From: Eledone cirrhosa
Taxonomy: Eukaryota
Reading direction: 5' to 3'
DNA: 64,000 bases
Assembly: GCA_964016885.1 (NCBI GenBank)
Contig: OZ024741.1
Coordinates: forward strand, 169,756,001-169,820,000
The notes below the pieces were generated by a model. The model did not search any database, was not told where the DNA came from, and saw only the letters and a list, made by a program, of their open reading frames with translations. Positions 7,286 through 45,177 of the stretch are shown here, in pieces. Position 1 is the first letter of the stretch, and each line of letters begins with the position of its first letter. Made by a program: the position numbers and the translations under genes.

Positions 7286-7395
7286 ACAGTCTCTGAAGAT
7301 ATGATGTGGCAAACATGTATTTGAAATTGAGTGGCACTACTTTCAGTGTTTAGCAATTTTAGACAACTCTATCTGTGAAACAATTGTTAGATTGT
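7286..7395 (+). ncRNA. Hammerhead ribozyme with long stem II (inverted copy of 5831-5944)
   Basis: ACAGTCT CTGAAGA ... GAAAC AATT GTT AGATTGT; a C>T change keeps stem I as G.U. Confidence 0.75.
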
Positions 7396-7521
7396 AAATA
7401 AATCTCCTTTTTTGTACTGTTGACCATGTTATTCTCCACTTTTTCAATTATATATATATATATATATATATATATATATATATATATATATATATATATA
7501 TATATATATATATATATATAT

Positions 7522-8258
7522 ATAATTCTTTGTCTCGCTGTCTGTCACTCTGTTCCTATGCATTTTCTAACGGCTGGACCAAATCAAATCAAATTTTACA
7601 AGGTAATAGTATAAGACGTCCGGGAGTGTCAACATGTAATCTTTATTTTCATTTGGATTAAAACAATATAAGATTTTATCTAAAATGATATTTTATAGTC
7701 AACTATAGTAAACCATCACCACCACCACCACCACCACCACGACACACATGCATCTACACATATATATACATATGTGATAACAGACAGGTGTGTGTGAATG
7801 TATGTCTGTGTGTGTCTGTTTTAGTATATGTATGTGAGTGTATGTGAGAGTGTGTGTGAGTGTATATGAGAGTGTATGTGTGTGTGAGTGTATGTGTGAT
7901 AATTTTTATTTTCATTTAGATTAAAACAATAGGACGTCATATTTTGTATATGAATATGTATGAGTCTGTTAGTGTGTGTGTGTGTTTGCGCGTTCATTAG
8001 GTACGTTATTGAATACACACACACACATCTACACATACATGAATTACACAATGAATATTGTTTACTCTAAGGTGCTTCAAAATTGACAGATTTTCATTTC
8101 TAAATTCTATTATCATTGCAATTTTTGATATTTTTGATATTTTAAAAACTTTTGATATTTTGAAATAATTATGAGAAAAAAAACCATCTTCATATTTATT
8201 GTTTACTAATCTGAATAAGAACAGCAGAAAGCCGGGCAGCGCCGGGTAATTCAGCTAG
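7522..8258 (+). mobile_element. Non-autonomous Helitron-like element
   Basis: 5' GTCTGTC...AACGGCTGGACC...AAATTT motif; 3' hairpin CCGGGCAGCGCCGG followed by CTAG|T. Confidence 0.6.
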
Positions 8259-8558
8259 TATATATATATATATATATATATATACACATGTGTGTCCCGG
8301 GTTCAATAGAGGGTAACCACAGTAAGTAAGGTACTTAATACATTAGTAGAATGTAAACAGCAAATTTAATATAGAAATTATAACCATTTCTATATTCAAT
8401 TTGTTTTATATATAACTCATCTAACGTCCGATATGCTGAAACCTGTATGTAAATACATACATCAATACATACATGCATACATACATACATACCTATGTAT
8501 GTATGTATGTATGTATGTATGTATGTATGTATGTATGTATGTATGTATGTATGTATGT

Positions 8559-11000
8559 ACTTCTGGTTTTATAATTTCATAACTTGTTTACCAATAGAGA
8601 GAGAGTCGCTTTCTAACATAGACACAAGACTCTCTCATTGGAATTTACACAACATCAACTAGGTAGAGTATGTATGCATGCATGCATGTGTAGATATGGA
8701 TGTTATTGTATGTGTGGATGTGTATGTTTTGAGTTGTATGTGTGCATGCGTATATGCTTTGTATCTGTACATGTTTATATGCAGTTATTAGATGCAACAT
8801 TTTTGGAATGTTTTACATACTTTTACTGTTCCATTAATGGATTGTACTTGTAATTTTCTAACTAGGTGTGTTCTTTCTGTTCCTGTGAAGCCTAGAGATT
8901 TGTATTGAGGCAGTTACTAACATACCCCAGTGCCCCAATAATCACAGGCATAAATCTGAAGGTGTAATCAGGGTGGAGTATCTGCAGATTTCTTATCAGT
9001 TCTGCATAAATATTCTCTGGTTACGCGTTCCTTATTACAGATACCATTATAGGATATGTTCTCATCTATTCCCAGTTATCTGTAGCAGTCCTCATCAGAT
9101 ATCGGTGAAACAGTTAGACCATTGATGACAATGTTGCTAGATTGGGTTGTTGTTTTCCCCCGGCTTTACAGTCATGTATGAGCATTTATCTTGGCCAAAC
9201 TCCATTCCTATATCCTTTGAGAACGTTGTAACCAGGTCAAGATTTTTCTTCATCCCATCCATATTCTTGGCATAGAGTTTCAGATCGTCCACAAAGAAAT
9301 TATGGGTTAGGTTTGTATTTCTGTCCTCCTGTGAGCCAATGATGTATCTCTCACATTTCTTGAGCAGAAAGGACAAGGGGTTTAATGACAAGATGAATAA
9401 TATCACAGAAAGACTGTCCCCCTGAAATATACCCCTGCGATATTTTATTTTATCAGTGAAAATAGAGTCCTCCTTCTCTGTCTTTAACTTTAGGATAGTA
9501 GCCGAAGAAGAAGACAGTCTCTCTATGGTTCTGACAATAATGTCTGGGACTTTAGCAAGTTGGAGGGCCTCTATCGTCCAAGAGTGGGGAACAGAATCGA
9601 AAGCTTTCCTGTAGTCCATCCAGACTGTAGCCATATTCCTCCTAAGTTGTCGCACCTCCGACATCGCAGTTTTGTTGATTAGGAGTTGTTCAGCACATCC
9701 CCAAACCCCTTTCTTTCCAGCTGCTTGTTCATCTGTGATGATGTTATTATTTTCTCAGTGATCTTGGAGGAATAGGTTCAGGCAGGCTGTATACATCTTA
9801 TACATCAGGTTCTGGCATGCAATGGGTCGATAGTTTTTTGCCAAGTGGTTGTCTTTGTTCTTGGGGACCAGTAATCTTTGTGCTAATGTCAACCATTATT
9901 GTATAAGTGTATCTACCTTAAGAACTTGTTGGTAGAGGTCAGTAAGATACCTCCGATAAAATATCAGGTTTTTGTACCAGTAGCCGACAATCATGTCTCT
10001 TCCTGGTGTTTTCTTTTCTTGGAGTTTTCCTATCACAGTCTCAAGGGTACCCTCACTTATTTCGTATGTTTTTGTTGTAGTGTAGGAGCAATAGTTCTTT
10101 AGGATTTCTCTTAGCCACACTGCATCTTGGTTGAAATTCTTCTTTTCACCCATATTTTTCTCCAAAAGATACTATATCTTTCTGGGATGGGGCCTGAGTG
10201 GCACTTATTATTTTGTTCTTCATATCTCTATAGACTTATGTTTGGTTTCGTCTGAATGTTTTATTAAGCACTTTTCTCTCATCTACCTTCTTTAGGTATC
10301 AGCGTTTTTCGCTAACAGCTCTCAATTCTTGTTTGAGGGTGATCATCTTATATTGAAGTGTTCTGGTTCTACTGTTACCAAACATCGTCTCTATTTTATT
10401 TTTCACTCTTTGTTGGTGAGGATTGAGGTTTTTTTGTGTTTGTTTGCATGTAAGGAGCATTGTCACATATCCTATGTTTTTTCGTAGGTCAGCAATCTTT
10501 TTTTCTATTTTAGTTACATATGATGGTATTTTTGGTGGTGTTCTGTTCTTGTTAATATCTCTGCTATCACCAAGATAATGCTTCACTGTCGTTGCTAAGG
10601 CATGTATGTATGTATGTATGTTATCTCTTTCTCTTAATTTAGAGTATATTATGTATGTATGTATGTACGTACGTACGTACGTACGTACGTATGTATGTAT
10701 GTATGTATGTATGTATGTATGTTCTTCTTTTTGGTAAATATCATCTTGGTTAAGAGAGTGGGACTGGCTTTGTGCAGTGCCTTTGCTCACTATAAAAGCT
10801 TCATGGCACAGGCATTGTTTTGTATCTGGAGATCTCTCTGTACTTGTCATCACATGGTACCATGGTCCCAGCACTATGTGTCAATAATTGTCACAAGTGT
10901 GTTTGTACCAGAGTTTTCAAGTCGCTGGCTGGACTAAAAGTCACTCATTCAGCAGGATATAAAGTAGTGGCCGTACTCGAAAACGAGTTGGCAGCCACCA
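8559..11000 (-). mobile_element. Internally deleted R4/Dong-like non-LTR retrotransposon in (TATG)n
   Basis: RT motifs KTPGRD, RPIAC.N..YK, DYRKAFDSVPH, GIFQGDSLS, FVDDLKLY; C-terminal PVIIGALG; both ends abut (TATG)n. Confidence 0.85.
9137..9664 (-). pseudogene. Reverse transcriptase fragment (R4/Dong-like)
   Basis: ORF track: WMDYRKAFDSVPHSW, RGIFQGDSLS, FFVDDLKLY, GMEFGQDKC. Confidence 0.9.
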
Positions 11001-43278: not shown

Positions 43279-43848
43279 GTGAGTAAGTTACTCTTGAAAT
43301 AATTCTTAATATATAGAGAAAAACATTTATTTGGAATTGTATTTACTAGTATAGAAAGAGAGGAATCAGAAGGTGAGGGGACAAATGGAATAGTATAGAG
43401 AGAGCGGAAGGGGGAAGAGGTAGGAAGTAGAGTGACAAACTGAGATGGAGGGAGGGGTAGAGGTGGAAGGATTCCTTGATCAGTTTTGATATGTAGACTT
43501 CATGTCATGGAATGTAGTGAGTTAAGGAGAATTAAATTGATCATAGTGGGAGGGATGGATAGAGAGGAAGCGAGAGAGGGGGAGGGGTGATATAAAGAGA
43601 TAAATATATATAAAATAAAGATAAAGATAATAATGACAAAAATAAAAGCAAAGAAGGGGGTGAGAAAGAAGAAAAGAAAAGATAGCCAAAAAGGGGAGGG
43701 AAGGAAGGAAGAAAACGAAGAAATAGAAGAGGAAAGAGGAAGAAGAGGGGGATATATGTATTGGTTTTGTGGGTAATTAAAAGGGTTTAGATACAACAAG
43801 AGGGTATAAAGTCTAAGTATATGCAGTTTGTCAGTTGGTAGTAAGAGG

Positions 43849-44970
43849 TTAAGGGTTCGATTTGTAGTGCGAAAACTTCTCTTTGAGTCTATGGTTACAA
43901 TAAATTGATCTTTCGATTTTATTGTTGAGTAACTTATTCTTCGAACTTAAGATGTGGAACAGCTCAAGGTCGCATAATCGACAGCTTCTCATACCACTCC
44001 GATATGGGGCGCGTTCGATAATTTTTTCCCCTTCAGGGTGTATTGATGGTTACTTTCCCTCAGTTGTCAGGTCTTGTTTGCAAGGGTAGTTACATAACGG
44101 TGCTGGGAATGTTTCATTGCGTAACGGTGTGTATACCAACGGGCTTTAAATGTATTCCCAGTCGCTCCGATGTAATACCATTTCTGGTTGTCTGATTCCA
44201 CTGTGCATTGGTAAACCAGGTTAGACTGCATACATTCATTATGTAATGGACAGGTTTCAGGTAGGTGGCAGTTACAGTTCTTGTCATGGGCAACTTTGGC
44301 ATTATTGGTGGGCTGCGATGCCTGTACAAGTGTGTTACGTTTTGTTTGCCTATTAGCGAGTGGTTGTGTATTAGATATTCTGTTGTGTTCGGTGGTGATT
44401 GTATTGTTATTGTTGTAAATTTGTGTTTTGGTGTTGTTATGTATCTTTTTAGCGTTAAGCATCTTAATGTGTGCCTCTATATTTGGTGCCGTGGAGTAAG
44501 ATAGTCTAATAGATTTAGTGTTAAGGATTTTGCTGTATCTATGTGAATCTGGAAAGTGCTTATTTATTATTCTAAAGAAGGTAGAGGGTAGGTTAGTACT
44601 AATGGAGGTGTTAAATATGGGGTTATACCAAATATATTTTCTATTGCGTGAATTGTTTGATTTCGATGTTGTATTTCTATTTGCCGTATACTTTGCAGTT
44701 CTATGCGTTAGTGCGTGTGTGCCTGTGTTACCGGAGTTTGTGTTATGCGTGTTCGTGTGCGCTTCACGGAGGCTTTCATCTATATATTCTACTCTATCTA
44801 AGTGGCCTGCCTTGTCTAATGCGGTATTGTAGTATTCTGCATGTTCTTCGAAGATTTGTCGGTTAGACGAGAGGCGGGAGATCCTAAGGGATATGCTGCG
44901 TGGAATGGATTTAATTATGGATAGTGGGTGGTTTGAGTTACAGTTGATGTATGCTAAGTTTTCATTAATT
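43849..44970 (-). pseudogene. Naiad-like RT thumb + CxCx5C + GIY-YIG endonuclease
   Basis: YINCNSNHP..IIKSIP, WYNP, CNCHLPETCPLHNEC..NLVY...YYIGATGNTFKARWYTH; past a TGA and a frameshift it continues CRLCDLE...LLNNKIE...CNH. Confidence 0.9.
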
Positions 44971-45075
44971 TGTCCCCTCACCTTCTGATTCCTCTCTCTC
45001 TATACTAGTAAATACAATTCCAAATAAATGTTTTTCTCTATATATTAAGAATTATTTCAAGAGTAACTTACTCAC

Positions 45076-45177
45076 TATTTTGAAAATTTGGACTGTGAAC
45101 AACAATTATAATTGAGTGGCTGCTATTTGCAGTATAGCAATATAAGGTTGCACTTACCAATGAAACGGTCGTAAATA
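45076..45177 (+). ncRNA. Long-stem-II hammerhead, U3-A8 core
   Basis: TATT TTGAAAA T TTGG...CCAA T GAAAC GGTC GTA AATA. Confidence 0.78.

Follow-up and report, generated by a model that had tools for sequence, protein, structure and literature searches.

Why should two families of retroelements, whose terminal repeats are otherwise dissimilar, share a small RNA motif within the stem of a ribozyme? The question is raised by a stretch of 64,000 nucleotides from Eledone cirrhosa (assembly GCA_964016885.1, contig OZ024741.1, positions 169,756,001 to 169,820,000 of the forward strand; hereafter the window), in which Penelope-like elements (PLEs) carry predicted type I hammerhead ribozymes with a short, near-palindromic stem III and a long stem II that bears the motif, here termed the module. 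The observations to be explained are a loop sequence with covarying flanks, a bias of G·U pairs towards the sense strand, an 11-nt spacing, restriction to one lineage, retention beside altered ribozyme cores, and copies that end at two fixed distances. Judged from sequence, our tentative reading is that a protein docks on the loop, probably the one that the element itself encodes.

Both hammerheads sit in inverted 5' copies of the pseudo-long terminal repeat (pLTR), with truncated element bodies on the minus strand. That of family A1 (7286..7395, +; pLTR copy 7147-7453) comprises the core CUGAAGA (7293-7299), a 77-nt stem II (7300-7376) and GAAAC-AATT-GUU (7377-7388), in which stem III is palindromic and GUU is the predicted cleavage-site triplet; that of family B (45076..45177, +; pLTR copy 44968-45226) has the core UUGAAAA (45080-45086), a 75-nt stem II (45087-45161) and a GUA site. 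The strings from which a preliminary description of this locus had drawn the motif were confirmed at the tips of these stems (7326-7357 and 45111-45141), each within a type I hammerhead-like fold, and the repeats around them are indeed dissimilar: the 3' untranslated regions (UTRs) of A1 and B gave no blastn match over the ribozyme and a lone 25-nt match elsewhere. The apical module of A1 (7324..7359, +) sets GAGUG (7329-7333) against UAGC (7351-7354) and scores 32 bits with the motif model, of whose training set this copy is a member; in B the same strands lie at 45114-45118 and 45135-45138, within a longer unit (45100..45150, +) that includes a second loop. Each element body holds a further copy. 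The 5'-truncated A1 body (5773..7146, -) retains the endonuclease C-terminus (~7146-7050), a 3' UTR interrupted by an inserted dispersed repeat, and a pLTR (5773-6084) with a hammerhead (~5831-5944, -) whose module (5870-5904) has decayed and is not matched by the motif model; the irregular 3' strand previously remarked upon here is real, and as it occurs in one of 35 distinct family-A copies it points to decay of that copy. The fourth copy, absent from the preliminary description (43211-43245, -), lies in the pLTR (43128-43386) of a 5'-truncated family B element (43128..44999, -) with the thumb of a reverse transcriptase (RT), a CxCX5C linker and a GIY-YIG endonuclease (44999-44070), a frameshifted tail to ~43852 and a 3' UTR.

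Further families (C, D and K, later M and N), first detected by a scan of flanking DNA for the hammerhead core only, allowed the unit to be reduced to a minimal form. The proposal of an ATTG/CAAT helix around an AGTG and TAG internal loop stood in that a conserved loop lies between covarying helices, but the unit is smaller and more general: 5'-G-A-R-U-x-3' opposite 5'-(N)-y-A-G-C-3', where x·y is G·U or C-G, in a stem II of 57-110 nt. Across the 3.0 Gb of the genome, with some loci counted twice by the patterns, the exact motif collected 1,802 matches against 40 for its reversed control, the G·U form 3,917 with a GUC site (control 68) and 2,206 with a GUA site (control 63), and the C-G form 15,350 (control 235). 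One minor-family pattern gave no excess (135 matches versus 151 in the control) and served only for sampling minor families; matches to the family F pattern (GAGTGTGTCC...) were discarded as chance because they have no hammerhead core. Comparison with Rfam yielded no match to the module, and RF00163 does not span the long stem II. As the isolated hairpins of both window modules are of ordinary stability relative to shuffles (z -1.05 and -1.28), the evidence for the module is comparative, not thermodynamic.

Covariation was assessed in 31 natural family representatives, taken from 35 rows by leaving out K353 and K348 (misparsed) and C and K313 (near-duplicates), with counts that ignore the relatedness of families. 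In this alignment 89.9% of cells are paired, seven of nine pairs vary on both sides, and the covariation score is 0.623 versus 0.237 when shuffled and 0.05-0.125 when slid; the pair below the closing G-C alone occurs as A-U, C-G, U-A, G-C and G·U. With shuffling confined to the A and K groups, four of the six variable pairs are still significant (p 0.016, <0.001, 0.001 and 0.003). RNAalifold, blind to the proposed structure, recovers the same module in 15 K-type stems. The covariation of flanking helices across different families anticipated for this motif was found. Family-B sequence is also present in contigs of four other sequencing runs, where no compensatory change was seen. In many K families the tip helix reads GAUC on both strands (alignment columns 17-20 and 29-32), which may be a second conserved feature or an aid to dimerisation.

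Do these halves act as RNA at all? Internal promoters are described in pLTRs (PMC6765202), and the 5' half appears to resemble a TGAGTCA-type site in K families, so the halves might be promoter elements at the level of DNA, or form a hairpin in the minus-strand cDNA. Such a role is very improbable: the spacer between the halves ranges from ~15 to 29 nt with the pairing retained, and wobble cells favour the sense strand, with 37 G·U or U·G against six A·C or C·A.

A second loop, A-N-U/A-G, lies nearer the core in A-type stems and was included in no search pattern. Its A, U and AG are retained in all 14 stems, whilst the closing pair is U-A in ten, C-G in three and broken in one. In A1 (7317..7364, +) AUUU (7319-7322) faces UAG (7360-7362), with the basal A, counted from the sequence, 11 nt below the apical A; in B AAUU (45104-45107) faces AAG (45144-45146). 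Of 12 families scored, 11 space the adenines of the two loops by 11 nt, or about one A-form helical turn, and the remaining one by 12 nt. The pair score of the double module is 0.366 versus 0.194, with family B partly misaligned. Family M (L181:2808-2952, -) has a stem II of 110 nt, with both loops, in a U·U form, below a longer tip that may be branched.

The module does not correspond to familiar internal loops. Selenocysteine insertion sequences (SECIS) and kink-turns are built on tandem sheared pairs, to which each strand contributes 5'-GA-3'; here the 3' strand is AG before the closing C in 31/31 representatives, no Rfam family matches, and the open reading frames (ORFs) need no in-frame UGA read-through. 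The bulged-G (loop E or sarcin-ricin) consensus is 5'-AGUA-3' / 5'-GAA-3', compared with which position 4 of the module is G, C or U and its last 3' base is G in 31/31. By comparison of sequences, the module is like bulged-G loops and like purine-rich protein-binding loops such as IIB of the Rev response element (RRE) of human immunodeficiency virus (HIV), in being an asymmetric loop with an A, a bulged purine and a U facing A and G; it departs from the bulged-G form in its fourth position (G·U or C-G rather than sheared A·G), its first (A·G rather than A·A) and its bulge (G, A or U). No long PLE stem II with a conserved internal module was found described in the literature searched, outside of which lay the supplementary figures of one hammerhead survey, and the module is thus apparently undescribed.

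How the module relates to catalysis bears directly on its role. Features of PLE-type type I hammerheads (a C(U/C)GANGA or U3-A8 core, GAAA, NUH and stems I-III) are present throughout, with an exact core in 24 of the 31 representatives. The family B core UUGAAAA belongs to the commonest copy (29 of 34 matches identical) and is the published U3-A8 covariant (PMC4209133), not decay; U3-A8 covariant cores appear repeatedly in the genome, in several unrelated PLE families (window 12594-12624, 13060-13090, 45080-45173 and others). Two K subfamilies carry an A6U core (a pattern of core and 5' strand gave 2,444 matches versus 69 in the control) with full modules retained, and changes at A6 lower hammerhead activity (PMC3088659). 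A further K subfamily was amplified with a one-base insertion in the core and likewise keeps the module; hammerheads with changes comparable to these have low activity. The 3' distance from module to GAAA is 11 nt in 17/17 K-type representatives and 22-36 nt in the 14 A-type ones, and this difference between the groups argues against one fixed contact with stem I. Retention beside altered cores, together with a distance fixed in K but different in A-types, favours protein docking.

The same measurements can be turned to a purely RNA-based account, in which the loop is a tertiary element, be it one that receives the A-rich strand lying past stem I or one that receives the partner ribozyme of the dimer, that sets the rate of folding and cleavage without protein. 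Contacts between stems I and II are the usual route to hammerhead speed (PMC4209133), the exact 11-nt spacing of K-type modules and the ~13-16 nt that separate the A-type basal loop from GAAA would suit such a contact, and most representatives have AAUAAA, or a sequence one letter away from it, after the cut site. Nevertheless, the best-conserved A-type loop is the one 22-36 nt out, AAUAAA drifts from +1 to ~+17 whilst the K module stays in place, A-rich tails also follow hammerheads that lack the module, and the module persists beside the A6U and insertion cores; we consider a contact of this kind unlikely.

Protein docking is also consistent with where copies end. Ends fall at two family-specific distances 3' of the predicted cut site: ~49-55 and 187 nt in B, 60 and ~230 in A1, 42 and 155 in D, 53 and 137 in K339, ~54 and 158 in K354, and 58 and 229 in E2. 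As these lie past the cut site, the copied RNA would span an intact ribozyme, as it does in Poseidon_Ac, where reverse transcription begins at two internal positions, the hammerhead needs the element's protein in order to cut, and that protein is a predicted dimer (PMC11167929). We therefore picture, as a possible mechanism, a loop on which the element's RT-endonuclease would dock while the transcript is still uncut. Where A apposes G and a purine bulges out, the helix would be deformed and present a surface that a protein could read; with one A-form turn between them, both loops would point in the same direction, an arrangement that might suit a dimer or an extended surface. Once bound, the protein would tag in cis the RNA that encodes it, help to place reverse-transcription starts ~42-60 and 137-230 nt downstream, and time a weak, dimer-type ribozyme. 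The fuller version of this idea, that a previously undescribed motif duplicated one helical turn apart is the recognition site of a telomerase-related RT and makes a protein-gated ribonucleoprotein (RNP) switch, whose binding role outlasts fast catalysis in some subfamilies, must for now be called doubtful.

Which protein would be involved depends upon the identity of the elements. They had been labelled Naiad-like, and this label fails: the ORF runs from RT through a linker to a C-terminal GIY-YIG domain (families B, D, E2 and K354), and DKT (B, D and E2) stands where Naiad has DKA. A Nematis/Neptune-like label was likewise dropped in favour of Hydra on published clade diagnostics (PMC8557442). 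RWK and DKT both occur in full ORFs of B and D, E2 shows DKT, and longer copies have the RT motif YRDD; alignment confirms the CxCX5C linker and C-terminal GIY-YIG, with the K354 and K435 ORFs alike. Read by eye, the endonuclease alignment shows CxxC and CxH but no CCHH, with at most one C between the GIY and YIG halves. A (TA)5+ run lies within 400 nt of the tail in 71/76 B, 29/36 A1, 20/23 D, 50/56 K339, 20/23 K354 and 8/8 E2 copies. By domain order and motifs, then, the carriers are assigned to the Hydra clade of PLEs, the trees being free of named Hydra reference proteins. Tandem copies lie 3.36-3.57 kb apart with the ORF start ~200-300 nt 3' of the ribozyme, and the module is hence non-coding.

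ORFs could be linked to A1 (through other copies than that at 5773..7146), B, D, E2, K354, K435/K451 and N. Several candidate links and labels were rejected. K-type hammerheads seemed joined to an L1/Tx1-like long interspersed nuclear element (LINE) at L342 and L343, but the LINE has an ATT tail of its own, at which it terminates, and the flanking sequence is common to both loci. K families had looked non-autonomous, as no ORF was seen within 1.5-5 kb, yet colinear copies have an ORF and a long UTR (~2.3 kb). The link of K339 to an ORF at L457 is doubtful and was not counted, since its endonuclease resembles the N family, and a stretch taken as K upstream sequence is another repeat. Of separate note, L342:1-4792 (+) holds a near-intact L1/Tx1-like LINE (ORF1; endonuclease, RT and zf-RVT) adjoining a K-type pLTR pair in a duplicated segment. 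The decamer GTCGAGCAAC precedes the first methionine in B, D and E2 alike, ~25-40 nt upstream of where the ORF begins in their tandem copies (L212, L213 and L214) and following a possible 3' splice site; it recurs in the D tail, and could be a start-site or protein-binding signal. Proteins P0001-P0003 and the L434 ORF, which belong to module-bearing families, have long N/T/H/R-rich inserts on both sides of a WYNP segment, which are short or absent in most database relatives and present in P0004.

How widely, then, is the module carried? Among 44 long-stem clusters, all 22 that were pattern-positive pass a relaxed loop test, as do four of the 22 others (M and three N-group clusters), so that the expectation that other long-stem hammerheads share the motif held for these and fell short for the remaining 18/22. 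The N group has a probable U-A-closed variant that is below the detection of motif model R1. Hammerheads without the module and with stems II of 49-95 nt were noted at L147:672-755, L197:1491-1579, L216:152-240, L188:1934-2044, L402:4042-4171 and L384:3738-3810, and lengthening of stem II seems to have happened more than once in this genome. In quick trees of sequences gathered in this analysis (including L249, in which no hammerhead was found), one branch sets the ORF-linked carriers apart, in company with loci not assigned a hammerhead; of four such loci within the clade, three had no hammerhead downstream and L391 is close to the N-family RT. Protein identity is 47-61% within A/B/D/E2 and 31-40% between these and K. 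The module is absent from 77 metagenome relatives, with a best E-value for the motif model not below 4.5, and no relative was found among viral contigs.

This distribution invites a host factor, acting in export, 3' processing, translation or stability, as the partner of the loop instead of the element's protein. Of the genomes examined, that of one host alone has families with the module, which was kept while the proteins diverged to 31-37% identity; a sequence like a poly(A) signal is close by, and in tandem copies the module lies ~250-300 nt upstream of where the ORF begins. A host partner is nonetheless improbable, as other PLE families in the same genome do without the module (the 18/22 non-pattern long-stem clusters, and L384) and neither a known host-protein motif nor an Rfam family was matched.

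It is worth noting that several results weigh against docking by the element's protein. The constancy of G, A, U and of A, G, C is partly built in, as the search patterns fixed six positions; the change from G·U to C-G at x·y is a single event between groups (within-group p 1.0), and the invariant U-A and G-C pairs of the module carry no covariation signal. For 14 A-type stems RNAalifold draws outer and inner helices round a larger open loop, as the preliminary description had drawn it, and predicts no basal helices; the U-A and G·U pairs inside that loop are our inference. Support for the carrier branch is moderate, with a Shimodaira-Hasegawa-like approximate likelihood ratio (SH-aLRT) of 96 in one quick tree and 89-92 in the other, to which N was added, and the protein of the module-less L384 is as similar to carriers (35-41%) as K is to A. 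Of the metagenome loci, 43/77 have hammerheads with stems II of 10-25 nt and two longer matches look like chance, and all 26 published Hydra hammerhead rows are short-stemmed and lack the module (PMC8557442); it is at best a lineage-specific addition among Hydra-clade PLEs. Lastly, in the one PLE assayed, PAc of the Poseidon clade, the RT could still use templates truncated to +20 beyond the start of stem II (PMC11167929), and since stem II is dispensable in that assay it is not a general RT-binding site of PLEs.

Some of these points would suit a residue of ancestry, in which generic selection keeps stem II stable, the loop letters have no specific role and the six fixed positions exaggerate their constancy: all ORF-linked carriers are related, and long stems II without the loop are common in this genome. 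It is hard to reconcile with the unpaired A, G and bulge, which are kept though the UTRs of A1, B, D, E2 and K354 cannot mostly be aligned over the ribozyme (a 69-nt A1-E2 match excepted), with the detection of families C, D, K, M and N by core alone, or with the unsearched basal loop, which keeps A, U and AG in 14/14 whilst its closing pair shifts from U-A to C-G. Ancestry of this sort has, to our minds, a low probability.

Much of the setting is already known, namely hammerheads in PLE pLTRs, U3-A8 cores and the two-start tail. The elements match published Hydra-clade PLEs in RWK, DKT, CxCX5C, a C-terminal GIY-YIG with CxxC and CxH, (TA)n insertion, a pLTR hammerhead and inverted 5' copies, but their monomers measure 3.3-3.6 kb where published ones are generally under 3 kb, and their stems II, at 57-115 nt with the module, differ from the 3-7 bp with 3-10-nt loops of the 26 published rows, which include one octopus family (PMC8557442). 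With minimal and PLE type I hammerheads they share a palindromic stem III of the dimer type, the U3-A8 core and often a base left unpaired at the bottom of stem II; helix II of those reaches ~7-8 bp at most, with no internal module in the main text (PMC4209133). Two RT starts 3' of the hammerhead, and the tail signature they leave, recall the Poseidon_Ac RNP with its uncut RNA template and protein-assisted ribozyme, though Poseidon_Ac is of another clade and its ORF starts in stem II (PMC11167929), whereas here it starts downstream of a non-coding stem. Naiad offers a PLE-type pLTR, inverted structure and (TA)n preference, but its N-terminal endonuclease, DKA and CCHH motifs and want of canonical hammerheads, as described in PMC8557442, do not fit. 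The structural variant of the known ribozyme-retroelement pairing is real and apparently undescribed.

How Penelope-like RTs select their own RNA, and what purpose weak hammerheads serve, are open questions (PMC8557442, PMC11167929). These RTs are the sister group of telomerase, and a small, clade-specific, covarying loop gives a precise handle on RNA recognition. The young families B, D and E2, whose reading frames are long and intact, provide RNA together with its matching protein; one-loop, two-loop and altered-core versions exist as natural variants, with loop-less relatives in the same genome as controls. Standard descriptors that assume a short stem II would overlook hammerhead-like sites numbering of the order of 20,000 in this genome.

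The window itself holds further examples. A K-type family has a predicted hammerhead at 63411..63497 (-), with its core at 63493-63487, a 60-nt stem II and the C-G form of the module (GAGUC/GAGC, 63433-63478, -) as a genome pattern match; it was absent from the preliminary description. An N-type family has a predicted hammerhead with a 115-nt stem II at 35088..35221 (+) and an inverted twin at ~34939-35072; its probable U-A-closed variant (AGUU 35134-35137 / UAG 35164-35166, +) is not detected by R1, and a related copy is ORF-linked. A short-stem U3-A8 hammerhead without the module (12590..12628, +), downstream of a related endonuclease fragment (11507-~12250), serves as an internal control. 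A near-intact PLE ORF of another clade, with RT, a CX4CxxC linker and GIY-YIG at its C-terminus, lies at 25749-27695 (+), with an inverted twin 98-99% alike at ~47150-49160 (-). Between them, 37860-41700 is a large array of 9-12-bp tandem units that gives rise to long spurious open frames.

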